Positions 22,997 to 50,248 of a stretch of 64,000 nucleotides of DNA are shown here, piece after piece. Every line of letters starts with the position of its first letter. Within the stretch, counting starts at the first letter, position 1. The stretch spans positions 10,331-74,330 of IMG/VR virus record IMGVR_UViG_2671180604_000001. One strand, given 5' to 3'. Source of the stretch: a virus (taxonomy: Duplodnaviria > Caudoviricetes). The position numbers and the translations under genes are program-made. Under the pieces are notes generated by a model that was not told the DNA's origin, made no database searches, and was given only the letters and a program-made list of their open reading frames with translations.

Positions 22997-23920
22997 ATGT
23001 CTGAAACAGGTCGAAAAACGAAAAGAATTACATACAATCTGCATGAACGTGGTCGCTCTCACTTAGGTAAGGACCGCAGCAATGTTGATATGAATGAAAT
23101 GATCAAACAGATCAATAGTCCTCAAGTACAAGAAATGGTAAAGACAGGGACTTTGTACGGTTATAACGGACATGAAATTCGTAAGCGTTATGGGATGAAT
23201 CCGCCTGATTCCGTCATCATTGATGGAAAGGTAGTTTATCTTGAGCGCTCATTTAGAACAATCGAAGCTTATGCAGATAAAGAGGGGAATGTAACGCATG
23301 TCACTGAGTTTTTAGATAATGAATCTGGTGAATATGCACGAACTCAATATCAAGCACGAGTAGGCGGTTTTAGTTCAGCACAAAACTATAAGAAAGCAGG
23401 ATTAGGACTTATTCCAGTAGGTTTCTACGGCTTTGATTATGTGACTCAACCTAACTACACAACCAATGTTGGAGATGGGCAATTATTTGATGGCTTAGCC
23501 ATTCCAGTTGATCAAGATGGATTGATTGCATCCTTTGATAGCAGTACGGACGTAACTTTGCTTTCGCCGTCAGAAGCAATGATTGCTCATTTACTTGAAC
23601 AGCAAATTATTCGTGACTTTGACAATATTCATGCTCAGTTACAGCTTTTACAAATGAATGGTCAATCATTAGACCAGATTGATGAATTAGCGAATCAAAT
23701 TGCACGAAAAGATAAGCGAGAAGCGATTCAATCACAGCGTATGCAAGACCTTTGTTCTGGATTAGTTGGTGAAGTTCGTTCATTTGATTCTGTATGTGCT
23801 GAAGCAGAGGAACGATTAACTGAAAGTGATCTAGCGCGAATGCGTATAAGTGGTGAAACCACTAAAAATAACAAAGCTAGACCACGCATTTTTAAGAGTA
23901 TGTTCGGATTTGGAGGGTAA
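22997..23920 (+). CDS. Prohead maturation protease (T4 gp21 / herpes-fold type)
   Basis: YGYNGH, GGFSS, GFDYV.QP catalytic-type motifs; C-terminal scaffold-like tail. Confidence 0.7.
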   Translation: MSETGRKTKRITYNLHERGRSHLGKDRSNVDMNEMIKQINSPQVQEMVKTGTLYGYNGHEIRKRYGMNPPDSVIIDGKVVYLERSFRTIEAYADKEGNVTHVTEFLDNESGEYARTQYQARVGGFSSAQNYKKAGLGLIPVGFYGFDYVTQPNYTTNVGDGQLFDGLAIPVDQDGLIASFDSSTDVTLLSPSEAMIAHLLEQQIIRDFDNIHAQLQLLQMNGQSLDQIDELANQIARKDKREAIQSQRMQDLCSGLVGEVRSFDSVCAEAEERLTESDLARMRISGETTKNNKARPRIFKSMFGFGG

Positions 23921-23926
23921 ATACTT

Positions 23927-24733
23927 ATGTCTTTACCTAAAGATTCACTTAAATGCATACAAGATGCCTGGTACAAACTACTAGTCGATTTTAGATCGTG
24001 GTATATGCCAGAAACCATTCAGACAGATGAATGGAAAAAGCGTGATATTCGAACCGCAATTAAAAGTTGTCCTTCACGTATGATGGATGATTCTGAAGCA
24101 ATGCTTGCAGAATATCGTAAAAGTCAAAATGCAGAAGTTGATGGTGGTGCAACGGCATTCATACCAATTATGTTGACTGCTACAGCAATGTTAGATCAAC
24201 CGCCTGATACGATGCAGCTATTACCGATGCCTTACTTTGTGCCTGTAGTAATAGGCGATAAGCAAGTTCAAATTCGATTGATAGCTAAAACGGTCAGAGC
24301 ACAATTAGCGTTCTATGCAACCAATTCGCATGATGCACGTTCCGTATGCGACCAGTTCTGTACTTTTGTACAAAATGAAGATAAACGCCGTTTCCAAGTA
24401 CCATTTGACATGGGCATGAACCATATTCAAAAAAGTACTTTTACCATAGTAGAGAATCAGTTATTTCCATCACCTGTACCAAGTGAAGCCATTAACCTTT
24501 CTATTTTCACTATTGATGTGCAATTGGTCGGTTATGCTCCTCAAATCATAGGACTTGGTGGACCAAACGACAATACAACCGGAAATGGATATAACCCTGA
24601 TGGTTCAGTGGTTGATAAACCAATTCAGGATCTTGTAGTCATTCAAGCTGATCAGTTCACTGTAGATGGTCATACTCGTGTTTTAGCAGATCGTGAAACT
24701 GGAGAAATCACAGTGGAGCGTTTCGATGACTGA
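23927..24733 (+). CDS. Virion structural protein (tail completion-like)
   Basis: Position in late unit; alpha/beta composition. Confidence 0.4.
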   Translation: MSLPKDSLKCIQDAWYKLLVDFRSWYMPETIQTDEWKKRDIRTAIKSCPSRMMDDSEAMLAEYRKSQNAEVDGGATAFIPIMLTATAMLDQPPDTMQLLPMPYFVPVVIGDKQVQIRLIAKTVRAQLAFYATNSHDARSVCDQFCTFVQNEDKRRFQVPFDMGMNHIQKSTFTIVENQLFPSPVPSEAINLSIFTIDVQLVGYAPQIIGLGGPNDNTTGNGYNPDGSVVDKPIQDLVVIQADQFTVDGHTRVLADRETGEITVERFDD

Positions 24734-25235
24734 AATTATTAAGATTGATGCGCGAGTAACTGGATTTTCTAATGATGAAATAAGATTGATCAGTCTTTGT
24801 TTTGCGGATTCTGGTCAAATCCTTGTCCAAAAAACAGATATTTTCACGGCTTTACCTGTACGTCCTGATCAGCAAGCCGATACGATTGTTGTGACGGATT
24901 CACCGAATGTAATCCAAAATTGGCAATTAAAATTTGATGCACAGCAGCATTTAGAAGAAGTCATTAGAGTTTATCAAGCAAGCTTTAGAGCTGGATTAGT
25001 TGAGTTCGAAAAATCGCTTGAACGCTACAATCCTATGAACATTCTTCAGGTTCGGAAAATTGATAAAAATGGATTACAGCAAGAGTTCGATAGTAGTTCA
25101 TTAGATAACGGTCATATCGCAGCATTAATTTCTATTTGGGCAAGTCATAAAATAGCAATTTCACATGCAGTCACTTCAAAAGAGGAAGTTAAAGAAGAAT
25201 ACATCGATAGAACTATGTTGCCGTTTAGTATTTAA
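24726..25235 (+). CDS. Hypothetical phage protein upstream of terminase
   Basis: ORF coupled to both neighbours. Confidence 0.6.
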   Translation: MTEIIKIDARVTGFSNDEIRLISLCFADSGQILVQKTDIFTALPVRPDQQADTIVVTDSPNVIQNWQLKFDAQQHLEEVIRVYQASFRAGLVEFEKSLERYNPMNILQVRKIDKNGLQQEFDSSSLDNGHIAALISIWASHKIAISHAVTSKEEVKEEYIDRTMLPFSI

Positions 25236-25246
25236 AGCGGTGATGT

Positions 25247-27235
25247 ATGGCTCTAAAACCACTTAAAGATATCCCCGAATGGTGGGAACTTTGCGCACGT
25301 TATCGTTATGATATCTATGCCTTTGCAGTAGAGGCTTTAGGTGTTACACCGACTTGGCAGCAAGAACTACTATTTGAGTCAATCCAGTTTGATGGTAGCC
25401 GTACATCGGTTGCATCTGGGCATGGTTGCTTTGGTAAAGGTACGAAAATCCGTTTAGCCAACGGGAAGTGGAAACGTGTTGAAAAAATAACAATAAATGA
25501 TGCAGTAATGGGAACAGATGGCTTTTCACCGCGAGAAGTGATCAAAGTTGTACAGGGATACCAAGAGCTATATCAATTTGAATATGCCAATGGTTCAAAG
25601 CATGTCTATAACAAATCTCACATTCTTTGTTTAGTCTCACTCGAAACAAAAAACGGTTGGAAAGCTGGCGATACCATTGAAGTCCTGGTATCGAAATACC
25701 TTGAATGGCCTGAAGAAACCAAGTGCCAATTTGCAGCATATGAACTGAAACATAGAAAATTCCAGCCTGTAAAAATTAATAGCGTCACAGCCTTGGGAGA
25801 GGGTGATTATTACGGCTTTGTCCTCGATGGTGATGCAACTTTTCTAACAGCTGATGGCATGGTTCACCATAACACTGGTAAAACTGCATCGGCTGGTATC
25901 GTTGCTTTATGGCATCTATTGTTCTTTGTTGAATCCATTACGATGTTCACTGCTCCGCAAATCGGGCAGTTAAAGAAACAAGTCTGGAAAGAAATCAGTA
26001 TTAACCTGTCACGTCTAAAAGCTGGACCATTGGGATGGCTTGCTGATTATATCGGTTATCAGTCTGAATTAGTCTATATCAAAGGCTATAAAGAAAAGTG
26101 GTATGTCTTTGCAAAAACAGCACCTAAGCACCAGCCAACGAACTTGGCAGGGAACCATGCAGATAATTACTTGCTATGGGGTGATGAGGCAAGTGGTATT
26201 CCTGATGAGGTTATGGATGTTGTCCTAGGTGCTTTGACGCATGAAGATAACAGAGCTGTTTTAACTTCACAGCCGACACGTAACGCAGGATTATTCTATG
26301 AGACACATCATAAATTAAGTCACAGAGCCGGTGGTATTTGGATTGCTTTAACGTTCAATGGAGAAGAATCTCCATTAGTAAGTAAGCAATCATTAGAAGA
26401 ACAACGTCAGAAATACGGTAGCCGTGACGATCCTCAATACCAAATCCGTGTTTTAGGTCGCTTTCCAGACCGTGCTGATGAGTTCTTAATCACGAAACGA
26501 CAATCCGAAGAAATGTATGTCGGTGCATCGATTTTCGAAGAACACGTTTTTGGTTATGTGATTACAGTCGATGTAGGCGGTGGCGTTGGGCGAGATGATT
26601 CTGTAATTGCTGTATCGAAAGTTTGGGGTGAAGCTCAATGGGGAGATCGAGCACGCCGTGTTGAAGTTGTTGATATTCCACTTTGTAAGAATAGAGATGA
26701 CATCACAGAGCTTTTTGCCAAGATTAATGAATGCATTTTGAAATATCCTAATGCAACTTTGGTTGTTGATGATAATGGCGCTGGTAAAGGTTTAGGACAA
26801 CTGCTTAAGAAACATGGTATTTGGTTTATGCCTGTTTATTGGGGAGGTGCATGCTTCAATAATGACAATCGTAAAGAGTATGTAAATAAACGTGCCTTGG
26901 CTTATGTTTGTCTTAAACGTGCAATTGAATCGGGTCGTTTCAAAGTTAAAACGAAAAAATTCTTAGTCAAGATTCAAGATCAAATAATCAAGATCCCTTA
27001 TACATTTGATGAGCACAGCCGTTACAAGATTCTAAGTAAAGATGAAATGAAGCGGAAAGGGATTAAATCTCCCGATCTTGGTGACGTTTTCGCATTCTTA
27101 TTCTTAGAAAATGTGTTCTATACAGAAGCATATGAGAATGTTGTTATTGCAGATGATAGTCCAGAAGCACAGGAACGGGCAGAGCGTAAATCTAGGTTTG
27201 ATCAACTTAAAGAAGCAGCAAAGAACATTGATTGA
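25247..27235 (+). CDS. Terminase large subunit containing an intein
   Basis: Walker A SGHG/TGKT split by intein, Walker B WGDEASG, nuclease VDVGGG..RDDS and KSPDLGD. Confidence 0.92.
   Translation: MALKPLKDIPEWWELCARYRYDIYAFAVEALGVTPTWQQELLFESIQFDGSRTSVASGHGCFGKGTKIRLANGKWKRVEKITINDAVMGTDGFSPREVIKVVQGYQELYQFEYANGSKHVYNKSHILCLVSLETKNGWKAGDTIEVLVSKYLEWPEETKCQFAAYELKHRKFQPVKINSVTALGEGDYYGFVLDGDATFLTADGMVHHNTGKTASAGIVALWHLLFFVESITMFTAPQIGQLKKQVWKEISINLSRLKAGPLGWLADYIGYQSELVYIKGYKEKWYVFAKTAPKHQPTNLAGNHADNYLLWGDEASGIPDEVMDVVLGALTHEDNRAVLTSQPTRNAGLFYETHHKLSHRAGGIWIALTFNGEESPLVSKQSLEEQRQKYGSRDDPQYQIRVLGRFPDRADEFLITKRQSEEMYVGASIFEEHVFGYVITVDVGGGVGRDDSVIAVSKVWGEAQWGDRARRVEVVDIPLCKNRDDITELFAKINECILKYPNATLVVDDNGAGKGLGQLLKKHGIWFMPVYWGGACFNNDNRKEYVNKRALAYVCLKRAIESGRFKVKTKKFLVKIQDQIIKIPYTFDEHSRYKILSKDEMKRKGIKSPDLGDVFAFLFLENVFYTEAYENVVIADDSPEAQERAERKSRFDQLKEAAKNID
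25427..25873 (+). mobile_element. Mini-intein (149 aa, no homing endonuclease)
   Basis: Starts CFGKGT.I.LANG, ends YYGF.LDG...FL.ADG.V.HN, followed by Thr. Confidence 0.92.
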
Positions 27236-27236
27236 T

Positions 27237-27277
27237 TGGAACTGAACGCTTAAGAAGCGGTTCTAAAATACCAAAAT
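27237..27277 (+). promoter_or_regulatory. Putative late promoter
   Basis: TGGAAC-N30-AAAAT; 11-bp perfect stem 27275-27311 pairs with the start codon. Confidence 0.72.
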
Positions 27278-27302
27278 AGCCATAGTGATAAATAGGTGAT
27301 CT

Positions 27303-28850
27303 ATGGCTATTCAGTTTTACTTAACCAGTGCAGGGAAAAATGCAGCACTCAATGCTGCTAGTCTCGGTTTAAATGTTTCATTGACGCATATCGCCGTTGG
27401 TACAGGTAAATATGATCCATCAAATGCAATGACTCTAACTAATACTTCACTAGTTTCAGAACTTGAGCGATATCCGCTAAATGGTGGGAGTGTTGAACCT
27501 ATTTCACATACATTAAGATTTGTTGCGAATTTAGAACCGAGTCTAACAGCAGATGCTTTTGAAATAGGACTTATCACTGATCAAGGTGTTTTATTTGCTG
27601 TCGCTGCGACAACTTCAAATACACCATTGATTCGATTGGTTGCGAATATTGTTGCAATCGTCACTTTTGGGATGATCTTATCAAATCTCAATCTTAGTAA
27701 TTTAATTATTAATGTTGATCCAAATACGCCTATATCAGTTGCCTTGATGAATCAGCATCTTGACTCTGTTGATCCACATCCACAATACGCAACGAAATCA
27801 CTGGTTCATAGTCTTATAGATTTGAATGTGGATAACGCAGTTGACTATTTAGTCTCTTTATTAAACCTACATCAGACTGGAATAAATCCACATCCTCAAT
27901 ACTTGTTAGCTTCAACTTTTGGCGTTGATTTGCAAATGAAAGCAAGTGTAAACACGCCAATTACAGAAGAAAACTGTGTTTTCGGGTGGAATGGAGAAAG
28001 TGGTGCGACGGCTGCATTTCATAAAACACCGAAATGGTGGGTAACTCATGATGAAACGGTAACATTTAAGCCATTCCGTGCGTATGGTCAGTTTTTATTA
28101 AACATCCAATTTCAACCAGAGGGTGACGGCACTTTAGCAATTGCGATCTTCAATAAAGATGACGTTAAGATTGCAGAGGACACAATATTAAGTGTTAGCT
28201 CCACTAGTTTTAATCAATTGGTGAAGCATGTTTTCTATCTCAATAAGGGTGAATATGCAAAAGTTAGAATTTATGGACGAGTATGGAATGAGAATTGGGC
28301 ACACTTTAGTGGGTCAATATATGTTGATGATCGAGTAAAAGTCTTTAGTCCAGTCGGTTTTCAATCTACCGTTGATTTTGCAAATACGATAGAAGATGGC
28401 TCAGTATCTGTTGAAACACCACTTGATTACTCAACCTTTTCAAGTTCTGAATGGTCATATTTCGATAGTGGTTCAGAGCTGAATGTGGCACTTAGTGCTA
28501 GTACAACATTTGCAACACCTGAATCTCATACTCCACATTATCACCGTGCACTATTTACTACTAATCCAAATACAGAATTATGGATTGTTATCGAAGTCGG
28601 AAAACAATTAGTCGAAACACCAAGTGATTATGCAGCTGTAGAAGCGAAAGTGATTCGTGGTTCTACTGATGTAAGTGGCAATATCGTCATTCAAATACCA
28701 TTTTCGATGCGTACTGTTGCTACTCCGAATAATGAAACGTTGATTTATCGCGTTGCTTACTATTTAGCAGCAGTTACTAAAACACTCGCTGATCCTTTTC
28801 CTTCCGGCAATATTGATGGAATTCATGAGTTCTTTGCGGAGTTGTCGTGA
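27303..28850 (+). CDS. Tail fibre protein (tail-collar N-terminal domain)
   Basis: LT.AG..A...THIAVG.G, EIGL...G.LFA, two (D/N)PHPQY motifs. Confidence 0.8.
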   Translation: MAIQFYLTSAGKNAALNAASLGLNVSLTHIAVGTGKYDPSNAMTLTNTSLVSELERYPLNGGSVEPISHTLRFVANLEPSLTADAFEIGLITDQGVLFAVAATTSNTPLIRLVANIVAIVTFGMILSNLNLSNLIINVDPNTPISVALMNQHLDSVDPHPQYATKSLVHSLIDLNVDNAVDYLVSLLNLHQTGINPHPQYLLASTFGVDLQMKASVNTPITEENCVFGWNGESGATAAFHKTPKWWVTHDETVTFKPFRAYGQFLLNIQFQPEGDGTLAIAIFNKDDVKIAEDTILSVSSTSFNQLVKHVFYLNKGEYAKVRIYGRVWNENWAHFSGSIYVDDRVKVFSPVGFQSTVDFANTIEDGSVSVETPLDYSTFSSSEWSYFDSGSELNVALSASTTFATPESHTPHYHRALFTTNPNTELWIVIEVGKQLVETPSDYAAVEAKVIRGSTDVSGNIVIQIPFSMRTVATPNNETLIYRVAYYLAAVTKTLADPFPSGNIDGIHEFFAELS

Positions 28851-29122
28851 TGATTAATGAATACCGCAACGCAATTCGAGACCTCATCAATAAAAATATG
28901 CAGCTGGGAAAGTTGAATAGTTTAATTGTATGGGATGTTAAATCTGATGAGGCTCAAGATCCTACTTTACTAAGTTTGAGAATATATGGTTCTCGTACTC
29001 ATACGGATGTGATTCAGGTTGCATGTGGTGTTTCTGGGATTTGGGAAAAGTTACCTGAAAAACGAATAGCAGTGCCTTTAATCTCTGACGTAATGCGCTT
29101 ACGCCGTGAATATCTGGTTTAG
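28847..29122 (+). CDS. Small baseplate protein, LysM-like (GpX/gp53-like)
   Basis: D..LLS.RIYG......I....G pattern. Confidence 0.55.
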   Translation: MMINEYRNAIRDLINKNMQLGKLNSLIVWDVKSDEAQDPTLLSLRIYGSRTHTDVIQVACGVSGIWEKLPEKRIAVPLISDVMRLRREYLV

Positions 29123-29130
29123 GAGTCATC

Positions 29131-31165: not shown

Positions 31166-31167
31166 CA

Positions 31168-32394: not shown

Positions 32395-32412
32395 AAATGT
32401 CCAAAGTGGTTT

Positions 32413-32452
32413 TGGAACCTTAGAGAATAAAAATAGTATTTTCTTTAAGAAT
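32413..32452 (+). promoter_or_regulatory. Putative late promoter
   Basis: TGGAAC-N29-AGAAT. Confidence 0.6.
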
Positions 32453-32485
32453 GTCTATATCAAATTAAGTGAAGTAATAAAGTTA

Positions 32486-32788: not shown

Positions 32789-32864
32789 ACTTTAATTTTT
32801 TTTAAGAAAGCTCATCGATGTATGGGCTTTTTTTACATCTGAATAAGTCAAATTAAATAGCAAT

Positions 32865-32904
32865 TGGAACTGAACAAAATCAGGAATTTTCTACATGCGA
32901 AATT
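32865..32904 (+). promoter_or_regulatory. Putative late promoter (capsid)
   Basis: TGGAAC-N28-GAAATT. Confidence 0.6.
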
Positions 32905-32943: not shown

Positions 32944-34698
32944 ATGTCAGTTTTATCTGATCCACAAAATGCACAATACCAGACGCAATTGTCCTCAACT
33001 GCTGAGTGTCAAAAATATTTCTACCAGAATGAAGATGCAGCTGGTTTTGATAGTGCAAATAATATGGTTGAAACTAGACCTAGTGCATTAAATAAAATTT
33101 TAGAAATCGTCGGCTTTGATAGTGCATCTGATATTGATAAAGCAATCAATGTTGGTTTATCTCAATATCAATACTGTCACGGTGGTGAATTACCTCATGC
33201 GTCAGTGTTAGCAACTGCTTTAGATGCAGGTTTAACTATTGCAAGCAAAATTAAACCTTTGGCTGATTCATTTCAAAAATTTGAAGATGGTTTTGATGAT
33301 GTAAGTAATACTCATCAAGAATCTGTCAGTATCGTACCAGCAATAACAGTAGCAACTATTGCAACTTTAATTGCTTTCGCAACACCGATCATTGCGTATA
33401 TTCCTAACAGTAATGGTTCAAATGAAGTGCCAATTGTTGCAGTTCGATTTACTACTGACCGTTCATTTGGTGCAATGAACAAAGGTGAATATTTAGATGG
33501 TGTGAATGCGTCTAAACCATACACAGAAGGGCGCTTCCGCTTTGTTCTTAACAATGGTGGTGCTGGTACCACATATACTGCAACTGCTCATACAAAGTAT
33601 GCAGACTTTGCAGCTAAGACTGCTGACACAACTGCACCATTGTTGCCATTCATCGGTGGGAATATTTCGATTCGTATCAATGGCAAAGAAGTAGCGCATA
33701 CCCGTAATCGTAGTAAATCGAAACTATCTGGTCAAATTTCAGCGATTGCTGAAAAATCTGCAAAAATTGCAGGTGTTGAATACAAAGTAACTGCAAGCAC
33801 AATTAATTTAGACACAAGTGCAATTTCAGTAACTTTAGATCAAGCCTTACCAAATGGGGCGAAATTAGAAGTGTTCTTGGTTGCTGACTATGATGCACGA
33901 GATAACTCAAATAAATTTAAGCTTGATCCTGTTGGCGTAAGCATCGCTACAGATTATGAAACCTTGGTGAGCTCTCCAATTGTTACGCAAATTCGAGCTT
34001 CAAAACTATTGGTCAATCAGATTACCAATGAATTGAATGTTGGTTTTGTGGGAACAGCACTGTCATTGATGCAGGGCAAAATTTACCTTGAACAAACAGT
34101 ACGTTTGTTAGGTGAAGGAAAAGAACGTGCTATCTACAATGAACGGGAATTTACTTTTGATGCTAGCCGTGGTGTCACAGGTAATTTAGCTGCTGCTTAC
34201 AATACATCTGGTGACTTGTTCGGTGAGTTCATGAAGTATCTTGAAGCTGCCAAAATCGGCATTGTACAGGATACTGGCGGTGCATCAGTCGGCTTTGATT
34301 TGTACGTGGGTGATAATGCGAAAGTGTTTTTTGCTCAACTATCATCTGACAAAATGCCGACTAAAACAGGTGCAACTGCTGGACATGGTCAAATTGTTCG
34401 TATCGGCACATTAGCAGATGGAACCAACGTTTATCATATTCCAAGTTCTGCTGATGTTCTGGTTGAAGCAGATCAAGCATTTGAAATGTTATTGGTTGGA
34501 CGTGGTAGTGAACCAGTACGAAATCCACTCGTTGGCTTTATTGAGATGCCATTAACGGTTAGTGAAGCCACACCTGATCCGCGAGAAAGCTTGCTTGGAT
34601 TAATGGGTTCACAAGCTGCTGAACTCAATCCTATTGATCGTTATTCAGATCAGTTTGCTTTACTCAACGCGATCAACATGCCAAGACTCAAAAGTTAA
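32944..34698 (+). CDS. Major capsid protein precursor
   Basis: 584 aa, strong RBS and terminator, IGTL.DG..VY motif near the C-terminus, N-terminal propeptide-like region. Confidence 0.7.
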   Translation: MSVLSDPQNAQYQTQLSSTAECQKYFYQNEDAAGFDSANNMVETRPSALNKILEIVGFDSASDIDKAINVGLSQYQYCHGGELPHASVLATALDAGLTIASKIKPLADSFQKFEDGFDDVSNTHQESVSIVPAITVATIATLIAFATPIIAYIPNSNGSNEVPIVAVRFTTDRSFGAMNKGEYLDGVNASKPYTEGRFRFVLNNGGAGTTYTATAHTKYADFAAKTADTTAPLLPFIGGNISIRINGKEVAHTRNRSKSKLSGQISAIAEKSAKIAGVEYKVTASTINLDTSAISVTLDQALPNGAKLEVFLVADYDARDNSNKFKLDPVGVSIATDYETLVSSPIVTQIRASKLLVNQITNELNVGFVGTALSLMQGKIYLEQTVRLLGEGKERAIYNEREFTFDASRGVTGNLAAAYNTSGDLFGEFMKYLEAAKIGIVQDTGGASVGFDLYVGDNAKVFFAQLSSDKMPTKTGATAGHGQIVRIGTLADGTNVYHIPSSADVLVEADQAFEMLLVGRGSEPVRNPLVGFIEMPLTVSEATPDPRESLLGLMGSQAAELNPIDRYSDQFALLNAINMPRLKS

Positions 34699-36071: not shown

Positions 36072-37355
36072 ATGACAAACTTAAAATTAGCCAGTAACGG
36101 GACATTGTCTACTGGTGGAAATGGAGCTGCTGTATTAAGCCTATTCTTGAGCACTTACAGTTTTTTAGAAAATACTGAACTTGAAGTTGCATTTTTCAGT
36201 AAGAAAAATATTCCGACAGTGTTGTCAGACATCAACCTTCGGTTACGAATTATTGATTCAACAACGGGTGATGAAGTAATTAAAATACAGGGCACAATCG
36301 ATAATGATCCTGATAATTTAGCTTCAATTGTCGCTGTAGCTGATGCAACTGAGGAATTTGAGCAATTCGACTTACAATTTGATGATGCTTTAAGCTCAAT
36401 TTTATTAAGTAGTGCTTACAATCCACCAAATAGTCTTGGTCGAAATAAAGAAGTTTTAGCATTATTTGATGAAATGCCTCCTCCTTTTGATGCAGATGCA
36501 ACTTATACATTGATTGCCAATTTAGTTGATACGCCAAGTTATTTGGTTTTACCTTCAACTGATCAATTAAGTATTTATGTCGCGATATTGCGTGCAGCTG
36601 AAAAATTAAATATCCCTTTGGATATTGAAGTTGATTCTACTCTGACACCTGAACAAGTTGCCCAATTTGCTGAAAGCTTGGATGCTCAATCGCATCAAGT
36701 TCAACTGATATGGTCGCCTAACGTATGTCGTCCACGTGACGCAGTTTCACTACGGGGTCGTAAAGTACCTGCTACTTATATAGGTCAATACATTGGTGAC
36801 AAACTGCTTCGCAATGCGCGTACAAATGCGCAAGGTTTTGCGCCCATTCACTATGCAGTAGCTTGGAAAGACTATCCGTTTAAGAAAAAAGCATTAGAAC
36901 TTCGTCCAGATGTTGTACTCGATGAACCAACATTGGAAATACTTGCTCAAGCAAAAGTAAATGTAGTTCGTCCAATTAAATTTGAGCGAGTCCTATACGT
37001 GCTTAGTGATGTTCTTACACAACGTCAAAGTAAAAACAGTGCATTACGTTTAGTCAATGCAGCTGAAATTGCGATGCGCACTAAAAATGATGCTGTGAAT
37101 ATTCTTAAAAATCATATGTTGAAACCAACTGAAGATTATTTAGAAAAAGCCAGCAAAGAAATTGAGAAATACTTATCGACTGCTGCTACTTCAGGATGGT
37201 TAAAACCTGCTGAAGATTTGAATGGCAAGCCTTACGCATTCCGTTTGACTCCTGACAATGATTTCCCTTTTGAGAGAGTGCGATTGTATTTAGCACGCCG
37301 ACCAGAAGGTGCAACTCGTTCCGTAGTCTTTGATGAAGATGTTTTAGTTAAATAA
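36072..37355 (+). CDS. Tail sheath protein
   Basis: C-terminal L....VN.V, SAL..VN, I..YL......GWL, V.L...P pattern. Confidence 0.7.
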   Translation: MTNLKLASNGTLSTGGNGAAVLSLFLSTYSFLENTELEVAFFSKKNIPTVLSDINLRLRIIDSTTGDEVIKIQGTIDNDPDNLASIVAVADATEEFEQFDLQFDDALSSILLSSAYNPPNSLGRNKEVLALFDEMPPPFDADATYTLIANLVDTPSYLVLPSTDQLSIYVAILRAAEKLNIPLDIEVDSTLTPEQVAQFAESLDAQSHQVQLIWSPNVCRPRDAVSLRGRKVPATYIGQYIGDKLLRNARTNAQGFAPIHYAVAWKDYPFKKKALELRPDVVLDEPTLEILAQAKVNVVRPIKFERVLYVLSDVLTQRQSKNSALRLVNAAEIAMRTKNDAVNILKNHMLKPTEDYLEKASKEIEKYLSTAATSGWLKPAEDLNGKPYAFRLTPDNDFPFERVRLYLARRPEGATRSVVFDEDVLVK

Positions 37356-37367: not shown

Positions 37368-38144
37368 ATGTTAGGTGCAAATAATCCGTTTAATCAAAAA
37401 CCGCAAAAAAATGTATTGAGAGCATTTGATTCTGCTGCTGCAGAAATTAGTAGCAGTGTTAAAACACTGACAAGTTCAATAAGAGAAGAACTTTCATTTA
37501 TCGAACATGTTCGAGAATTAGCTTTGAATATTGTTTCTGATCTTGTTGACGCGGTCACAGACAATACTTTAGATGAAGAAGAGTTGCCGACTGATCGACT
37601 TGATTTTCTAATTCTTGATGCGCTAGATGGTGCAGATGATGAAAATAGCACATTAGAAAATGCATTAGTTTCTTCTATTGATGATGCATTATCTAGCTTT
37701 GGAGTAGATGACTCAGTGATTGCTGAAATCTTTAGTGATAATGTTGAAGCTGCTGATGCTGCTATTGAAGCTGCTGCAAGCACAGTGATTGCCAATATGC
37801 CAGATGATGGTGATCCGTTAGATGAACTTGTACGAGAGTTTATCTATGGAGAACCCGATGAGGAAGAAGGTTTTGACTCGGTTGGGGGTAAGAAAAAGCT
37901 TTCACGCGGTCAGATGTCTACGAAATCAGTTGGTGGTCGTAAAGTACGTTATAAGGCGATTGCAGCAATCCGTAACGGTGTAAAAAAGATTGTGAATAAG
38001 CGTTTACCCGGTCAACGTATTCGTCTTTCAAGTGAACAAAAAGCTGGGCTTAAAAAGGCAAGTTTAAAATCGCGTTCAGCGAATTCATTGAGAAAACGTA
38101 TGAAGTCTTTGCTCAAAGGTAAAAAGATTGGTTTGTATAAATAA
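37368..38144 (+). CDS. Prohead core-like protein (acidic middle, very basic C-terminus)
   Basis: D/E-rich residues ~20-170, K/R-rich last ~85 aa. Confidence 0.55.
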   Translation: MLGANNPFNQKPQKNVLRAFDSAAAEISSSVKTLTSSIREELSFIEHVRELALNIVSDLVDAVTDNTLDEEELPTDRLDFLILDALDGADDENSTLENALVSSIDDALSSFGVDDSVIAEIFSDNVEAADAAIEAAASTVIANMPDDGDPLDELVREFIYGEPDEEEGFDSVGGKKKLSRGQMSTKSVGGRKVRYKAIAAIRNGVKKIVNKRLPGQRIRLSSEQKAGLKKASLKSRSANSLRKRMKSLLKGKKIGLYK

Positions 38145-41545: not shown

Positions 41546-41576
41546 TTGATATATCAAACTTATAACAAGCCAAAAT
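41536..41576 (+). promoter_or_regulatory. Putative late promoter (portal)
   Basis: TGGAAC-N30-AAAAT. Confidence 0.65.
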
Positions 41577-41605
41577 AGTTGTAATTGTTAATCTTTGGCG
41601 AATAT

Positions 41606-43147
41606 ATGGCTGCTTCAGACATTTTATCCCTTTTGTTAGGACCAAGTGCGAATAGCATCCCTCAGCAATTGGTTGATGCTAACCAAGAAGTCATGGCGCA
41701 AATGTATGATTCAGTAGCTCCATTTTCACTTGGCACGCATACTACACCTGAAAATAAAAAAAGAACCCGTAAAGAGATTTTGACCAAGTGGGAGCAAATG
41801 CTAAAGTTTGCCCCCGTACCAGAAGGCATCGGTATACATGTCATGGCTGCGCTTGGGGGTGATACGCACAGTGGTCAACAAATTTTTATCACACCAACAG
41901 AGCGATTACGTGGAGAAATTGGAGCAACGGAAAAAGCCCAATTAGAAAAACTAAAAAAGCGAATTAAACCTGTAGAAACCATTATTAATAAATACATTAC
42001 TAAATTATGTTCGGAAGGTATTTCCTTTGGGGATGCCTATGCCCGTGTATATGGCAAAAAGGGAGTAGGTGTTACTGACTTACTTAGTAATGAATATACC
42101 TATGCACCTCAAATACAGGCATTCGAGCAGGGCAGTAAGACAGTCGCTTACTTTGCTCTGAATCCAAAGAACTGGTCCAAAGTCATTACGAAATTAAATG
42201 CCACACAGATGGTACGGATGAAATTGCCACGGATTCAAAATGTACCGCAATTTGATCCAGTAGAAGCTAGTTTAATTTCTCAAATGCTGGAAGGTGACGA
42301 TCCTGAAGAACTACCGATTTTACCAGCGCAAGTTGGTGGCTCTTTTTTGATTGCCATAGAGAAAACCTATGATGATGTCATTCTTGCCTTAACCACGATG
42401 AACAGTCAGCAAGTCGCTGATGCTGTTAATCAAATGTTTCTGACGCTGAACATGGCAGGTATGCCTCCAGCACAACGAGATGCTTATATCCGTGGTCTAG
42501 AGGGAATGCTCAAAGATCATGAGAAGTTCGTAAAAAATGCAATGGAAGGTGGTGAAGGTATTTGGAATACTAAATATCACGTATTACCGACTTGGGATGA
42601 AAAACAGATTCTTAATCCCGTTGGAGATATCAAAGGGCAACGTAATTCACCGGTTAATATTGAAACTTTTATGATTAATGTTCGCTTGCTAATGGGGGGA
42701 ATTGGTCTTGACCCTTCAATGGTTGGGTGGGCTGATATGCTTTCTGGTGGAATTGGAGATGGGGCAGCCTTTCATACGTCAAGTCAGATTATGCGCCGTT
42801 CCATGTATATCAGACAATCAGCCGTTCAATTCGCCAATGATATTATGCACATCGATTGGGGCTATTGTTACAACGAACAATTTGAAGCAGGTGAGCTTGA
42901 TTTTCCATGGCAAATTGAATTTTCTAGTACCCAGTCAGCAGCTGTGACTGAAGAAAATACCAATAAGCAAACTCAAATGAATACATCGCTGCTTAAAATC
43001 CAAGTCATTACCTCCCTTAAAGAATCGGAATTAAGCGAAGAAACCATGCAATATATATTAGAAAAAGATGCTGGTTTTAATTATGACGATTCATGTCGCA
43101 TCGCTGCGGATATTGCGAAATCTCGTAAAAATGCTGGGAGTGAATAA
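41606..43147 (+). CDS. Portal protein
   Basis: ~513 aa; FGDAYARV, GGSFL, G.DPSM.G and W.IEF motifs in portal-like order. Confidence 0.7.
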   Translation: MAASDILSLLLGPSANSIPQQLVDANQEVMAQMYDSVAPFSLGTHTTPENKKRTRKEILTKWEQMLKFAPVPEGIGIHVMAALGGDTHSGQQIFITPTERLRGEIGATEKAQLEKLKKRIKPVETIINKYITKLCSEGISFGDAYARVYGKKGVGVTDLLSNEYTYAPQIQAFEQGSKTVAYFALNPKNWSKVITKLNATQMVRMKLPRIQNVPQFDPVEASLISQMLEGDDPEELPILPAQVGGSFLIAIEKTYDDVILALTTMNSQQVADAVNQMFLTLNMAGMPPAQRDAYIRGLEGMLKDHEKFVKNAMEGGEGIWNTKYHVLPTWDEKQILNPVGDIKGQRNSPVNIETFMINVRLLMGGIGLDPSMVGWADMLSGGIGDGAAFHTSSQIMRRSMYIRQSAVQFANDIMHIDWGYCYNEQFEAGELDFPWQIEFSSTQSAAVTEENTNKQTQMNTSLLKIQVITSLKESELSEETMQYILEKDAGFNYDDSCRIAADIAKSRKNAGSE

Positions 43148-43150
43148 TAG

Positions 43151-43864: not shown

Positions 43865-43979
43865 TAACATAGTAAATAAACACAAATGTTTACAACTAAA
43901 GCTATTAATAATCATAATTGTAATTTATATTTTTAGGTAAGAGTTTTTATTATATAATTTTTTTTAAAAGGATAATTAA

Positions 43980-45038: not shown

Positions 45039-45053
45039 AAATTAGTTTAGTGA

Positions 45054-45094
45054 TGGAACTAGTCAGGTTTCTTAAACTTTCATAATGAAATAAT
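45054..45094 (+). promoter_or_regulatory. Putative late promoter
   Basis: TGGAAC-N30-ATAAT; hairpin 45095-45121 covers the GAGG RBS. Confidence 0.7.
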
Positions 45095-45129
45095 TGCCTC
45101 AATCAGAAAAATATTGAGGCATTTTTTAA

Positions 45130-47031
45130 ATGCGAAATATCGACATATTTACTTTATTACATGAACCACATACCAGTCGTTTAGTACAGGGATTTGATTC
45201 TGTAAATAGTGGTGCTTGTTCAATTGGATTGATCAAAGGGCAATATCGTCAGCTCAATGCGATTGTTGCAGAGTCTGCAACGGAAGAAGATCAGTGGCGT
45301 ATTGTCAATTTAAAGGGTTCAATCAATAGCATTGCAGCGTTTGATTCAGTTGCCGTTTTAGGTGCAGTTGATAATGACCATGCAAGTGCATTAGCACAAA
45401 TGCAGTTTGGACGTATGTTCGATGCCATTGAAAATGATGTAATTGAAACCAATACAAATGGTCTCTTACGCCATTTAGCCACATCACAATTTCATAAGAA
45501 TATGCAACTTATTCATCGAGATCATTTAGTCGCATTGCAAGACATTCCATGTGCTGTATTACCAGGTTGGGACAGTATTGAACTTACAACACATGAAGGA
45601 AAAACAGCAAATCTGCTATTAGACATGCAACTTCATGATGACAATACAGAACTATTATCTAGTTTTGATGGTTTAGCCAATTTGCTTGAATCAATTGGAG
45701 CAGAACACCCTGATTTTGATTCAATCATTGTTGAGTATCAATATCTCGATAAATTAATGAATATGCTGCATACAGCCATGCAAACAGCGTCTAAAGGCGG
45801 TGTAAAGGTTCTAAATGTAGATCGTAGTGAAAAGCCATTTCGACACAAAAAAGTGCTGAATGTCGCCGTTTCATATGATTTTGAAGATGGGCAATCCATT
45901 ACGATTCTATTCCATAATCCTGATCGTGACGCAAAACGGATTTCGCCACAAGACACTTTATTGTCGTGGAAGATTCTCATGAATAAGCGTGATGTAACAG
46001 GCGTGATTCAGCCAAACCAAGGTGAGGGTATTGCATTACCTGTACTTGCTGGGCGTGTTGTTAAATTGATTAATCAGAACAGCGCACGGTTTAAACGTAC
46101 TCAGGCTAAGAAAGCCGAAAGTGCGCAAACTTTAGCTGATACCGAACAACGTATTGCAGATAAGCAAAATCAAAAGACGGCATTATCTTCAGAAATTCAG
46201 GGGCTACTTGATCAAATTGATGGATTAAATAAGCAAAATAATGGTCAAGCTCCAAATGTTGATACTGGTGCGGTGGATAATGCTGCACAATCTGTAAATA
46301 CAAAAGCTGTGACCAAAGCTGAAGCTCGTCAAATTTATGATGTTTTAAGTACAAGTCACCGTTGGTTGACTGGTGGTACCACTGAAGAATTCTATAACCA
46401 GAATTATCCTACTGGAATAGATGAAGCGCTTATAGATGCAAAAAACCTTCTTGAACGTCCATTTGGAAAAGTTGCTTTGGCAAATGGATTAAAAGATTCA
46501 ATTGAACGAATGATTGCAACTGTAGAAAATACAATTGAACGCTGGAATAAAGGTTTAAGTGAAGATTCATCAAAAGCCAAAACCTATCCGCCTATTGAGG
46601 ACTTAGGTGATGGTTATTACAAAGCCTTCAAAAATGATAAAAAACTTGATGATTGGACAGCCCATATCAATACATATGGCGAATGGCAAGTATCAGCAAA
46701 TAATGCTTCATCTCGTGCTTGGAACAATGGCTATGGGGCACCTCGATTCTTTAAAACACTTGATGAAATGATTGCTAAGTATCCAGCATTTGCTGCATTA
46801 CCTGCAATGTTACCAACAGAGGATAATGCAAACGATAATAGCAATAATGATGATGCAGAATATTTGAATAAAGTCATTAAAGGTGAGGTTGATTTCTCAA
46901 ATGCAAGTGAAGTTGAAACTCAACTAGAAACTATTGGTGGGCGTTTAACGTCTGAAACAAATGATTTATTTGAACAAGCTGTTTCAGCTTATTCGATGTA
47001 TCAAGTAAACCAAGCTGCATCGGTCAATTAA
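45130..47031 (+). CDS. DarA-like internal head protein
   Basis: F.DGQSITI.FHNPD...W...NKRDVT..I.P..G...NS.RF.R DarA_N-type domain followed by coiled coil. Confidence 0.75.
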   Translation: MRNIDIFTLLHEPHTSRLVQGFDSVNSGACSIGLIKGQYRQLNAIVAESATEEDQWRIVNLKGSINSIAAFDSVAVLGAVDNDHASALAQMQFGRMFDAIENDVIETNTNGLLRHLATSQFHKNMQLIHRDHLVALQDIPCAVLPGWDSIELTTHEGKTANLLLDMQLHDDNTELLSSFDGLANLLESIGAEHPDFDSIIVEYQYLDKLMNMLHTAMQTASKGGVKVLNVDRSEKPFRHKKVLNVAVSYDFEDGQSITILFHNPDRDAKRISPQDTLLSWKILMNKRDVTGVIQPNQGEGIALPVLAGRVVKLINQNSARFKRTQAKKAESAQTLADTEQRIADKQNQKTALSSEIQGLLDQIDGLNKQNNGQAPNVDTGAVDNAAQSVNTKAVTKAEARQIYDVLSTSHRWLTGGTTEEFYNQNYPTGIDEALIDAKNLLERPFGKVALANGLKDSIERMIATVENTIERWNKGLSEDSSKAKTYPPIEDLGDGYYKAFKNDKKLDDWTAHINTYGEWQVSANNASSRAWNNGYGAPRFFKTLDEMIAKYPAFAALPAMLPTEDNANDNSNNDDAEYLNKVIKGEVDFSNASEVETQLETIGGRLTSETNDLFEQAVSAYSMYQVNQAASVN

Positions 47032-47044
47032 GGAAAAGCTTTAA

Positions 47045-47362
47045 ATGAATGGCTTAGAGAAGTTAAAACTTACGAAAGAATTACGTACTTTACTTGAGCA
47101 GATCCCGAATCTAAAAGGAATGGAGAAACTTCAAAGCGCTAAGCGATTACGTGAACTGCTTGAGTTGCTTGGTGGAAAGTCTAATGAGGCCGTGAATAAG
47201 CTGTTTCAGTCTATCATTGACGGTGATGTCAAAGTTTCTGTTGAGCTACTACAAAATGTTCGTAGTGAAGCCGAGAAAAACTTAGATGACCCACTATTAC
47301 TTGAGGCGGTAAATGTCTTGATAGCTCAAGTTAATGAGATAGTTGGAACTGAGCAAGCTTAG
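47045..47362 (+). CDS. Small helical protein of the Dar-like cluster
   Basis: Internal repeat GLEKL..TK.LR.LL / GMEKL..AK.LR.LL. Confidence 0.65.
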   Translation: MNGLEKLKLTKELRTLLEQIPNLKGMEKLQSAKRLRELLELLGGKSNEAVNKLFQSIIDGDVKVSVELLQNVRSEAEKNLDDPLLLEAVNVLIAQVNEIVGTEQA

Positions 47363-47384
47363 ACAAGCAATAAGCTTTCAAAAT
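47344..47384 (+). promoter_or_regulatory. Putative late promoter
   Basis: TGGAAC-N30-AAAAT; hairpin 47380-47405. Confidence 0.68.
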
Positions 47385-47419
47385 AGTCCTTAAATGGGCT
47401 ATTTTTTTGAGTTTTATCT

Positions 47420-50248
47420 ATGAAGAAGATCGATAATATTTCCAAATATACGGATGTTTTGGCTGCTATTGATTCAATGGTTACAGCATTAGGCAATCAA
47501 GTCATTGTTGAGTGGGATGGTGAACAGGAGAGTAAAATATATCAGGAATATTTAGATAATCTTGATCAATATGATGGTAAATCAATTACAGCATCAAAGG
47601 CTTATTTTAATGAGCATTTAAATGGAAAGTTGATTAAAACCAAAATTGGTTTAGTTCGTATTAACTCTAAATCTCGTGGAAAAATTCATGACCGTATGCG
47701 AGATGCAAAGTATCTTGCATTACCTTATATTCCAGAAGTTTTGATGACGGGTGATGTAAGTGATTTAGTACCGCTAAATAAAGATCGTGATGATAGTGCG
47801 GTAGGTTACTATGTATTTAATAAATTAAAGGAATTGGAAAATTACAGTCTGAATATTACATTAAAAGTGGCTTTGGATTCTGATGGGAATTTATTGTATT
47901 ACTTAGGAGCAGCAAAAGAAAAAGCCAACTTACGGACTGTCTCACAGGTCATTAACCCCACAGGCTCTAAAGCTGGCTTTGATTCTATTGAATCATATGA
48001 TGATGATGAAATCAATCTATATGTACAAGTTTTAGACAAAAACGGTAATGTACTGGCAGAGGATGATGCTGAAAAATTAATATGGGGAGATAGTCCAAAA
48101 GCTGCATCTTTAATTCTTAAAGGCAGATTAAACAACGTCAAAACAGCTAAAGGCACTAAGGTATCAACAGTATTTGCAGTATTGGAAGTTGATAAGGTTA
48201 TTGCCTCACATACTGCAACTGGCAGCGAAAATCCTAATTATCCTCAAGAACTACAACCACGAGATCGTAGTCGAGAGTCTTCTCAAGCGTGGGTGCAAAA
48301 AACTTCAAATACTTTAGATCCAGAAAGCTTGGGACGTTCAGGTCGTGCAGATACGGGTGCGCCTATTGTCGGTGATGATTTGGTAGTTGAGTCTGGTAAT
48401 GGCCGTACTATGGCAATCCAGCTTGCATATGAGCGCGGAAATGCTGATGAGTACAAAGAATGGTTGATTGATGAAGCAGAATATTTTGGCTTTAGTGCGG
48501 ATCAAATCAACCAATTTAAACAGCCTATCCTTGTGCGTATTCGTACCTCTGAAATTGATCGTATTCAATTCACAGTAGAAGCCAATCAAGATGATAAGTT
48601 GTCCTTTAGTGCTACTGAACGAGCAAAAACAGATGCAAGACGATTAGATGAGAACCTATTGTCACTGTTTACACCTGGTGAAGATGGCGACCTAATCACT
48701 GCAAGTAATCAGAAGTTTATCCAAGGATTTTTAAAGTCTTTAGGTGAAACGGAAGCAGCTCAATATATCGGGACAGATGGAAAGCCAACACAAGCATTAG
48801 TCACACGTATGAAAGCTGCAATATTCAGCAAAGCTTATAATGATGACCGACTTCTTGAAATGATGGCAGACCAAACAAAACCAGACTTGCAAAATATGCT
48901 AAATGCACTGGGAGCAGCTGCTCCAAAATTTATTGAAGCGCAATCTGTCAGCCGTGGTGACGTGCAGGATGTATCAAGTTCTATCGTTGATGGTATTGAG
49001 CAAGCACTTGATAAGCGAGTGACAAATGCAATTATTGATGCAGCGAATACGATCTTGGCAGCAAAGCAAAATGATCAAGATATTGTTGAATTTGTAAAAC
49101 AACAGGGGTTATTTGGTGATCTAGGCGAAGGCGTGCCAGAGCTTGCAGTATTCTTATCTAAGAATAGTCGCAGCGCCAAAAAGATGAGTTTGCTATTCAA
49201 AGCAATGGCAGAGTTTGCAGAAAAAGAAGCGATTGATGGGAAAAACATGGGGCTTTTTGGTGAACCTGAACCTGTCAACATCAAAGATGCAATCAATTAC
49301 GCCGTGAAAGTGATTGAGGATAATTATGGTGATAATGCCAATCTGAGCATGTTTGATTCTATTGATTCACTTACGACAATAGATGAAAAAGCACATGATG
49401 CAGCTACATCACCTCATAATGATTTAGACTTTCCAACAGCAGAACAAAAGCAAACTGGTGAATACCCAAAAGGGCAATTATCAATTGGTGATTTACAGAT
49501 TGCAATTGAGAATCCAGCAGGTTCAACGCGCTCTGGTGTTGACCCCAATGGAAATGATTGGGAAATCAAACTTTGTCATCATTATGGATACATAGAGAAT
49601 ACTACTGGTGCCGATGGTGACGAAATTGATGTATTTGTTAAGAATCATCTAGAGCATGTACCAGAGTTCGCTTATATCATCAATCAGCTAAATTTAGATG
49701 GTACTTTTGACGAACAGAAAGTGATTTTAGGAGCTGAGACAGAAGAAGAAGCCAAAGCGATCTATATGTCTAATTATTCTGAGAGGTGGCAGGGTTTTGG
49801 CGGAATCAAAAAGATTTCAATGAAGGAACTACTTACTAAGATTCAGCATACGTGGTCTGAGTTTGATTCTTGGGTAATGGATGGAAATTATGAGCATATT
49901 CCAGTTGATAAAATCAATATGGAAAATGCCCCTAAGATTCATGAAAGTAATATTAGTAAAGAAGATCCAATTGTAGTAATAGAAAAGAATGGGACATACT
50001 TTCTTGTTGCTGGCTTAGAACGCATTGCGTTTGCAAAACAAAGAAGTGAAAAACTCATTCCAGCGATCATTTTTGATGATAAAGAAGTGAAAACATCAAT
50101 TATTCAAAAAGCTATTAAAAAAGCAGGTTCAAGCGTGGACCCTGTTGCATTGGCTGCGCTTATTGTTGATGAATTAGATAAAAGTGTATTGAAAGAATTC
50201 GATGATATTTCAAATACAGTATTAGACTTCCTACATAGATTTGAGTGA
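47420..50248 (+). CDS. Polyvalent protein: LPD3-like + DdrB-ParB + inorganic-pyrophosphatase-like + ParB-like domains
   Basis: QPRDR, GAPIV...VESGNGR (DdrB-ParB); IEN..GS.RSG...YGYI..T.GADGD.IDVF (InPase); PIVV...LVAG.ER. Confidence 0.8.
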   Translation: MKKIDNISKYTDVLAAIDSMVTALGNQVIVEWDGEQESKIYQEYLDNLDQYDGKSITASKAYFNEHLNGKLIKTKIGLVRINSKSRGKIHDRMRDAKYLALPYIPEVLMTGDVSDLVPLNKDRDDSAVGYYVFNKLKELENYSLNITLKVALDSDGNLLYYLGAAKEKANLRTVSQVINPTGSKAGFDSIESYDDDEINLYVQVLDKNGNVLAEDDAEKLIWGDSPKAASLILKGRLNNVKTAKGTKVSTVFAVLEVDKVIASHTATGSENPNYPQELQPRDRSRESSQAWVQKTSNTLDPESLGRSGRADTGAPIVGDDLVVESGNGRTMAIQLAYERGNADEYKEWLIDEAEYFGFSADQINQFKQPILVRIRTSEIDRIQFTVEANQDDKLSFSATERAKTDARRLDENLLSLFTPGEDGDLITASNQKFIQGFLKSLGETEAAQYIGTDGKPTQALVTRMKAAIFSKAYNDDRLLEMMADQTKPDLQNMLNALGAAAPKFIEAQSVSRGDVQDVSSSIVDGIEQALDKRVTNAIIDAANTILAAKQNDQDIVEFVKQQGLFGDLGEGVPELAVFLSKNSRSAKKMSLLFKAMAEFAEKEAIDGKNMGLFGEPEPVNIKDAINYAVKVIEDNYGDNANLSMFDSIDSLTTIDEKAHDAATSPHNDLDFPTAEQKQTGEYPKGQLSIGDLQIAIENPAGSTRSGVDPNGNDWEIKLCHHYGYIENTTGADGDEIDVFVKNHLEHVPEFAYIINQLNLDGTFDEQKVILGAETEEEAKAIYMSNYSERWQGFGGIKKISMKELLTKIQHTWSEFDSWVMDGNYEHIPVDKINMENAPKIHESNISKEDPIVVIEKNGTYFLVAGLERIAFAKQRSEKLIPAIIFDDKEVKTSIIQKAIKKAGSSVDPVALAALIVDELDKSVLKEFDDISNTVLDFLHRFE

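Follow-up and report, generated by a model that had tools for sequence, protein, structure and literature searches.

Conserved Phe-Asp motifs in the head proteins of an Acinetobacter-group phage as predicted cleavage sites of an Asp-type variant of P1 Pro

Why does one short motif, Phe-Asp followed by a small residue (mostly Ser), recur in several head proteins of the same tailed phage? The question is raised by a 64,000-nucleotide stretch of viral DNA (hereafter the window), which comprises bases 10331–74330 of the 74,330-bp record IMGVR_UViG_2671180604_000001 (G+C ∼35%). It represents the late part of the genome of a temperate Acinetobacter myophage (74 kb; ABMM1 group), with a head module distantly like that of phage P1. 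The named phage closest by capsid is the temperate Acinetobacter myophage vB_AbaM_ABMM1 (ABMM1; 61.9% identity), Xanthomonas phage Rb1 was the sole further phage record with the capsid protein found (26.5% identity), and the portal, DarA-like, and DdrB-like proteins of the window match P1 Prt, DarA, and DdrB, respectively (BLASTP). The motif is present in a Pro-type head-processing protease, the major capsid protein, and gp21-like, DarA-like, and DdrB-like proteins, all of which are, like the sites discussed below, encoded on the plus strand of the window. An earlier interpretation of the letters alone (the sequence-only reading) had proposed that Phe-Asp is the point after which the protease cleaves and that propeptides and head cargo are labeled by this motif. 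This proposal fits all comparative tests run, except that the family-wide code, [L/F/M/Y]-D-[S/G/A/D], is broader than F-D-S. Support comes from the conserved islands formed by the sites, from their alignment with FES in P1 proteins, from the Asp and Glu clades of the protease, and from distant capsids that keep hydrophobic-Asp. On this evidence, our preferred reading, to which we assign a probability of roughly 0.75, is that an Asp-type variant of a Glu-type prohead protease cuts at the conserved Phe-Asp sites; cleavage at the sites, its position after Asp, and the role of the window protein as the enzyme are what we infer.

All motif positions listed in the sequence-only reading were found in the sequence, among them 12 copies of FDS in the five head proteins (2724 aa in total). 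Three further copies lie within the window, at position 198 of open reading frame (ORF) 15813, position 132 of ORF 24693, and position 387 of the fibre; one more is located in the 10 kb of genome beyond the window, which brings the genome total to 16. Chance was assessed across the whole 74,330-bp genome (93 ORFs, 22,537 aa). The suspected enrichment was borne out, FDS being the top over-represented tripeptide (16 observed versus 4.27 expected; Poisson P = 1.1e-5), and none of 2000 within-protein shuffles reached 16 copies (mean 4.24, maximum 12). For the extended form [GAS]FDS[AVI], 8 copies were observed versus 0.18 expected, again with 0/2000 shuffles matching (shuffle maximum 3). Five proteins carried at least two FDS copies each, the highest such number of any tripeptide. 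Across 20 conserved sites, and counting from the predicted scissile bond, position P3 was G, S, or A in 12/20, position P2 was F in 19/20 and W once, and position P1 was D in 20/20; position P1′ was S in 13/20 (D in 3, G in 2, N in 1, and A in 1), and position P2′ was I, V, A, or L in 17/20. Beyond P3–P2′, the surroundings of the 20 sites were alike in nothing. Their placement follows the architecture of the proteins: behind the core of the protease, in the N-terminal part of the capsid protein, ahead of the DarA_N domain, at domain junctions, and flanking the core of the gp21-like protein.

Conservation was examined in 14 viral contigs around the capsid gene (69–87% identity), in 9 around the DarA-like gene, and in ABMM1. 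The 20 F/W-D-x sites were kept in these relatives as islands within variable, indel-bearing flanks; mean column identity was 0.97–1.00 for the motif F and D versus 0.66–0.87 elsewhere in the same regions. Control FD motifs, by comparison, were not retained in relatives (sheath 103 and 139, fibre 387, position 266 of ORF 23927, and position 81 of ORF 24693), and a 3451-aa ORF of ABMM1 contained no FDS at all. Not every motif noticed at first behaved like a site. The portal YDS41 is present in the window, yet varies in relatives (YNS, YES, YET, and YDA) and was ruled out as a cleavage site because it is not conserved; WDG32 of the DdrB-like protein (and YDG51) was found only in relatives having the same N-terminal module.

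The putative enzyme is encoded at 22997–23920 (307 aa) and consists of a catalytic core (approximately residues 1–158) that a disordered linker joins to a helical, coiled-coil-like C-terminal portion. By sequence comparison, it is homologous to Pro, the head-processing protein of P1 (BLASTP, 27% identity, E = 8e-21, residues 39–237); it matched PHROG families phrog_4727 (2e-132) and phrog_1801 (6.6e-28), and tblastn retrieved Pro of P1, P7, D6, and SJ46. The candidate catalytic residues H59 and S126 were kept in 131/131 representatives of its clade (defined below) and D147 in 129/131; the equivalent columns in the P1 clade were 100% His and Ser, and the Asp is likewise shared. Four self-cleavage sites are predicted between 23486 and 23791 (↓, predicted cut): F164-D↓G (23486–23494), F180-D↓S (23534–23542), F208-D↓N (23618–23626), and F263-D↓S (23783–23791). 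All four were F/Y-D-x in 9/9 close relatives. In the AlphaFold2 (AF2) model, built from 42 sequences (mean predicted local distance difference test [pLDDT] score, 81.4), the core was a mixed alpha/beta fold up to ∼158 with pLDDT 90–98, and sites 164 and 180 fall within the single long low-confidence linker (residues 159–183, pLDDT <50), where they would be accessible. Next come a 65-residue helix (191–255), a break, and a second helix (263–284), at the start of which site 263 is located. The layout in the model is that of an enzyme with a scaffold-like tail, which would be removed after assembly. When the protease was compared with PDB sequences, only the helical tail was matched, and weakly, by coiled coils. 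In current databases, proteases of this clade are named "hypothetical protein" (NCBI; Acinetobacter, Alkanindiges, and Comamonas records), and several P1-group Pro genes are labeled "tail fiber protein" in RefSeq, which looks like an annotation error spread via phrog_1801.

For the wider family, one cut has been mapped. By Edman degradation, cleavage of the P1 capsid protein gp23 was assigned to the bond between E120 and S121 (Gonzales et al, 2022; PMC9024508). In the sequence this bond lies in the context NKAMLE120↓S121VAAEM, and similar Glu motifs recur in the P1 counterparts of the window proteins: GMFES169-171, LLES, and LFES in Pro; ILEA, LIES, and MLES in gp23; DLLE68↓A69 in DarA; GLFES in DdrB; ILES in Prt; and LMES, ILEG, and ILEA in gp21. 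Pairwise alignment placed F180-D-S of the window protease on F169-E-S of P1 Pro, and F645-D-S of the DdrB-like protein on F440-E-S of P1 DdrB. The pattern [LMFI][LFMI]E[SA] occurs five times in P1 Pro (reached in 0/2000 shuffles); in the gp23 propeptide it occurs three times (7/2000), one of these at the mapped cut, and it was absent from P1 Res, DarB, S, and Sit. In phage D6, the protease carries MLES four to five times, and the capsid junction reads KAMFE↓SVAQ at the same place as in P1. P1 DarA residues 1–69 are reported to have no density in electron cryomicroscopy (cryo-EM), and a removed fragment of ∼9 kDa is cited (2026 paper; PMC12810830); residues 1–68 amount to 7.8 kDa, and LLE68↓A69 fits the start of the cryo-EM model. 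A term search of PMC9024508 and PMC12810830 found no mention of a cleavage motif or consensus. The comparison yields, as a by-product, a testable Glu code for P1 (DarA LLE68↓A69, the Pro self-sites, and DdrB DIE708↓A). As judged from these alignments, the window motif appears to correspond, with Asp for Glu, to the hydrophobic-Glu↓Ser/Ala sites of P1.

The distinction between Asp and Glu runs through the whole protease family. A HMMER scan with the window protease gave 284 cluster representatives (50% identity) at E ≤ 1e-3, and 131 of the best 150 representatives (250–380 aa; fragments and fusions dropped) were aligned as the Asp clade. At column 165, after the end of the core at PNYxxN(RGY), D was present in 128/131; the preceding residue was L in 76, F in 32, Y in 10, and M in 9 (127/131), and the residue after this self-site D was S in 86, G in 22, A in 10, and D in 7 (125/131). 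A second site (column 181), 10–25 residues later, was a hydrophobic residue followed by D in 110/131 and by E in 4. In the C-terminal parts as a whole, hydrophobic-D-small motifs numbered 582 versus 117 for hydrophobic-E-small, with 1538 Asp and 1417 Glu residues in total. The P1 clade (115 Pro relatives of at least 300 aa among the 120 matches listed) showed the opposite: at the aligned self-site, position 170 was E in 115/115 and position 171 was S in 114/115, the second site was E in 113/115, and E-type motifs outnumbered D-type motifs 632 to 63, no member having more D than E. The window protease does not carry Glu at the self-site; the aligned positions carry Asp, and because of this difference it is classed as a variant of the P1 Pro family. 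In a tree of the cores, the Glu set was one split (support 0.998); the tree is descriptive, because both sets are top-hit lists. Columns that separate the clades are F125/W128 (beside the Ser), F105/I108, A114/V117, I11/D10, and N157/L160, whereas R62, H101, and E104 are common to both.

More distant members gave the same picture. A profile search of genome contigs with distant family members resulted in 47 prophage loci, with hosts among Burkholderiales, Pseudomonas, Moraxellaceae, Neisseriaceae, Nitrosomonas, and others. In 47/47 of these proteases, the first hydrophobic-[DE]-small motif after PNxxxN was of the D type and located 4–10 residues downstream, and D-type motifs numbered 224 versus 38 of the E type. 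The protease of Rb1 carries YDS164, LDS185, LDS224, and LDS251 and no E-type site. A profile scan of viral contigs yielded another 80 loci, nearly all of them ABMM1-like at ∼51% identity, which were not used for the counts.

If the protease reads Asp, its substrates should do so as well. The major capsid protein (32944–34698, 584 aa) matched phrog_1014 at 2.6e-171, the same family that P1 gp23 matches at 8.5e-255. Its predicted propeptide comprises residues 1–118 (nucleotides 32944–33297), and the predicted mature protein (residues 119–584) has a mass of 49.7 kDa; mature gp23 of P1 is reported at 49.3 kDa (PMC9024508). The predicted sites, within 33046–33300, are F35-D↓S (33046–33054), F58-D↓S (33115–33123), and F117-D↓D (33292–33300). 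Among the close relatives, whose flanking sequences vary and carry indels, sites 35 and 117 were invariant in 16/16 and site 58 was kept in 15/16, the exception being ABMM1 (IEY). Twenty of the distant prophage loci had a capsid gene ∼4 kb downstream; together with Rb1 and the window, this made 22 capsids, the distant ones being only 20–27.5% identical to that of the window. Hydrophobic-Asp was nevertheless present at site 1 and at the propeptide/mature junction in 22/22. Site 1 was FDS in 19, LDS in 2, and LDA in 1; all 22 junctions read hydrophobic-D-[S/D], and the mature protein then opens with a conserved S-x-x-x-H-x-[DE]. Across these capsids, motif density was 2.96 per 100 aa in the propeptide versus 0.92 in the mature part. 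The Rb1 capsid carries FDS34, FDG73, and MDS112.

The DarA-like head protein (45130–47031, 633 aa) is related to P1 DarA (BLASTP, E = 7e-18) and contains DarA_N (PF18788) at residues 195–318 (E = 2e-26; 92.7 bits versus a cut-off of 27). Six predicted sites between 45193 and 45723 (FDS22, FDS71, FDA97, WDS147, FDG179, and FDS196) all precede the body of this domain and delimit a predicted propeptide of 197 residues (45130–45720) from a predicted mature protein of 48.4 kDa (residues 198–633). The sites were kept in 11 relatives, with the exceptions of FNG at 179 once and Y for F at 196 in ABMM1. The sequence L-L-E-S at residues 185–188 (45682–45693), nine residues upstream of FDS196, aligns with L-L-E68-A of P1 DarA and is possibly a relic Glu-type site.

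The DdrB-like polyvalent cargo protein (47420–50248, 942 aa) is 41% identical to P1 DdrB residues 27–443 (E = 4e-96). Pfam domains were found at 60–160 (LPD3), 244–375 (ddrB-ParB, PF18763, 119.6 bits), and 675–807 (InPase), and the predicted sites F187-D↓S (47978–47986), F645-D↓S (49352–49360), and F815-D↓S (49862–49870) thus lie either in interdomain stretches or immediately behind a domain; two more, F885-D↓D and F927-D↓D, follow toward the C-terminus. All five were kept in relatives wherever the region was present. Insertions and indels abut sites 187 and 645, directly after them, and in relatives with an unrelated N-terminal module, this module still ends with G/S-FDS-I[ED] before the ParB core. 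No peptidase domain was detected by Pfam in the DdrB-like protein of the window. The presence of one and the same motif at these junctions and in the capsid propeptide suggests that the prohead protease cuts the junctions in trans.

The gp21-like protein (37368–38144, 258 aa) is acidic in its middle, carries a strongly basic tail at its C-terminus, and belongs to phrog_1053, the family that P1 gene 21 matches at 1.5e-100. Its predicted sites, F20-D↓S (37425–37433) and F169-D↓S (37872–37880), were F-D in 16/16 relatives, followed by S or A. Distant homologues were found as 18 matches in 17 prophage loci; the 12 of these 18 matches that were inspected had hydrophobic-Asp at approximately 18–22 and at approximately 144–166, before the basic tail. 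P1 gp21 is annotated "baseplate or tail tube." According to PMC9024508, it is not among the 23 virion proteins (Table 1 therein), and no scaffold has been identified in P1, which makes the gp21-like protein a candidate scaffold or core protein. As to the portal, the homologue in Rb1 (760 aa, annotated "capsid assembly protein") has a C-terminal extension (565–733) with seven hydrophobic-Asp-small motifs, which suggests that this tail is processed.

Taken together, a protease clade and its substrates appear, from sequence, to have switched jointly between Glu and Asp, in one direction or the other. In the mechanism that we propose, the protease would join the prohead via its helical tail and, as a serine protease inside the prohead, cut after Asp at (small)-Phe-Asp↓Ser/Gly/Asp/Ala/Asn-(aliphatic). 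Self-cleavage would detach the helical C-terminal part and free the core (residues 1–165, 18.7 kDa). The 118-residue capsid propeptide would be cut into three pieces, leaving residues 119–584 (49.7 kDa), and the DarA-like protein would lose 197 residues to yield a 48.4-kDa product starting at DarA_N. The DdrB-like protein would be split into an LPD3 part (1–188), the ParB core (189–646), an InPase part (647–816), and small C-terminal pieces, and cutting of the gp21-like protein would separate an acidic core of 16 kDa from a basic tail of 9.7 kDa. The most general form of this proposal has, in our estimate, somewhat better than even odds: that a large clade of capsid maturation proteases now labeled "hypothetical protein" (284 clusters, from Acinetobacter to Burkholderiales and Nitrosomonas) is Asp-specific at position P1, and that the sites in the protease tail and in the capsid, DarA-, DdrB-, and gp21-like proteins switched alongside, with the corollaries that cargo polyproteins are cut in trans and that the gp21-like protein is the scaffold.

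A number of observations, here and in the two paragraphs below, weigh against the proposed cleavage after Asp. The split between Asp and Glu is a single evolutionary event and does not constitute independent replicates. Conservation extends to FDS132 of ORF 24693 and to FDG48 of the terminase, which are uninformative because their flanks are conserved as well. In the published texts on ABMM1 and Rb1, neither N-terminal sequences nor mass spectra appear. For P1 DdrB, a product of 76 kDa has been reported (PMC5512222), which fits residues 1–708 (77.2 kDa, ending at DIE↓A) and not a cut at F440-E-S; a conserved motif is therefore no proof of complete cutting at a given site. The same match suggests that the 76-kDa product of P1 DdrB results from Pro, rather than from the embedded metallopeptidase proposed in PMC5512222.

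The motif might not be scissile at all and instead be a binding or targeting signal, which docks propeptides, cargo, and the protease tail to the shell, scaffold, or portal. According to PMC9024508, the first 30 residues of P1 DarB direct this protein to the capsid, with no cleavage known to occur, the motif is present in every protein that needs to enter the prohead, and conservation alone cannot separate binding from cutting. In addition, F208 of the protease lies within the predicted 65-residue helix (AF2). However, the sole mapped site of the wider family, MLE↓S of P1 gp23, is a cut exactly after the acidic residue, and the last capsid site is the propeptide/mature boundary in 22/22. Repeated sites per propeptide and module junctions with adjacent indels are typical of processing, and the signal-bearing DarB of P1 has no strict E-type motif. 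We consider a pure targeting role unlikely.

That the sites are cut by another enzyme, either a protease of the host that Pro activates or, in the case of the polyvalent protein, a peptidase embedded in it, is another reading to which we assign a low probability. The protease activity of the Pro family itself is something we infer, and the P1 GenBank record describes Pro as a [quoted passage not shown] For DdrB, autoproteolysis by an MPTase domain has been proposed (Iyer et al, 2017; PMC5512222). The window protein had no Pfam match at E ≤ 0.01 and none in NCBIfam, and 0/42 family members matched a Pfam peptidase family at E ≤ 1, with PF03420, PF20034, and PF04586 unmatched. When the window family was compared by hhalign with HK97 gp4, the probability was 0.4% over 5 columns; comparison with T4 gp21, as a single sequence and as an 18-sequence profile, was not significant (probability <1%). 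The profile comparison (0.93%, E = 0.059) aligned only residues 42–65 of the window protein with 68–91 of T4 gp21 (…LGELNHPPR), a patch around the His. Against these points, His59, Ser126, and Asp147 are invariant or nearly so in both clades, and ESM Atlas feature neighbors included "head processing protein" (0.95) and, among language-model neighbors, Peptidase_S80 and S77 clusters (0.92–0.93), which we regard as a lead only. Moreover, the residue at position P1 tracks the Pro clade, although the hosts of the Asp clade span Acinetobacter, Burkholderiales, and Nitrosomonas, and no peptidase domain was detected in the DdrB-like protein of the window. Finally, that the motif is without function and recurs by chance, composition, or old duplication among propeptides is very improbable, despite the fact that the P value of the bare FDS tripeptide is only ∼0.09 after Bonferroni correction over ∼8000 tripeptides and that the FD dipeptide is somewhat common (93 versus 61 expected), as no shuffle reached the observed counts, the sites persist down to 20–27% identity but their flanks do not, tail-protein FD motifs are not retained in relatives, and the site surroundings share nothing past P3–P2′.

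If the conserved sites are cut after Asp, as we propose, how does the system compare with known ones? P1 Pro is the closest: it is homologous, has the same His/Ser/Asp invariants and hydrophobic-acidic↓Ser/Ala sites, two of which align, and shares the kinds of substrate (a ∼120-residue capsid propeptide, DarA, and a DdrB-like protein). It differs by Glu at the self-site (115/115 versus Asp in 128/131), and one P1 cut only has been mapped. The prohead cleavage motif of T4 is L/I-x-E. T4 gp21 (S77) and phiKZ gp175/SPN3US gp245 (S80) are serine prohead proteases that process numerous head and internal proteins, and also themselves, at a short motif ending in an acidic residue, as is predicted for the window enzyme; unlike it, they have Glu at position P1, and no significant sequence or profile similarity to it was found, with just a patch around the His aligned. 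In HK97, the N-terminal scaffold-like delta domain of the capsid is removed by the co-assembled protease gp4 (S78). The HK97 capsid is cut after Lys, and gp4 differs from the window enzyme in that there is no acidic motif. By HHpred, P1 Pro has been aligned to HK97 gp4 (PMC9024508), and for SPN3US the motif AXE↓, with Ser favored at P1′ and several copies within propeptides, is described (PMC10052503). Like the DdrB-like protein, the polyvalent proteins described by Iyer et al (2017; PMC5512222) are multi-module head cargo from which modules have been proposed to be released proteolytically; an embedded peptidase was, unlike there, not detected in the window protein.

The short-motif prohead proteases of T4, phiKZ/SPN3US, and P1 (one mapped site) cut after Glu, and no Asp-specific prohead protease was found in the open-access literature searched. 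If our proposal is correct, the window enzyme would be the first of this kind, and the two sister clades would be a natural, related pair with orthogonal specificity, with which the residues that determine specificity at position P1 could be mapped (candidates Phe125/Trp128, F105/I108, and A114/V117). Polyvalent anti-defence cargo would consist of polyproteins whose module junctions are cut in trans by the prohead protease, and the acidic/basic gp21-like protein would be the scaffold missing so far in P1-type phages. The code would predict mature capsid N-termini for hundreds of uncultured prophages, packaged head cargo including anti-restriction proteins, and the split points of multi-domain proteins. 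In addition, the motif could serve as a cleavable tag with which foreign proteins are loaded into capsids.

The long ORFs of the window are almost all on the plus strand, and it includes genes for the large terminase (25247–27235), the sheath (36072–37355), and the portal (41585–43147), with tail-fibre and baseplate genes also in the region. No tRNA gene (ARAGORN) and no Rfam family (gathering thresholds) was detected in window positions 1–64000. The Walker A motif of the large terminase is interrupted by a 148-residue mini-intein (25427–25870) with a Hint domain (PF05203, E = 8.7e-16), which starts at Cys61 and ends with His-Asn208, followed by Thr209 of TGKT; in the terminase of Rb1, the same Walker A motif is uninterrupted.

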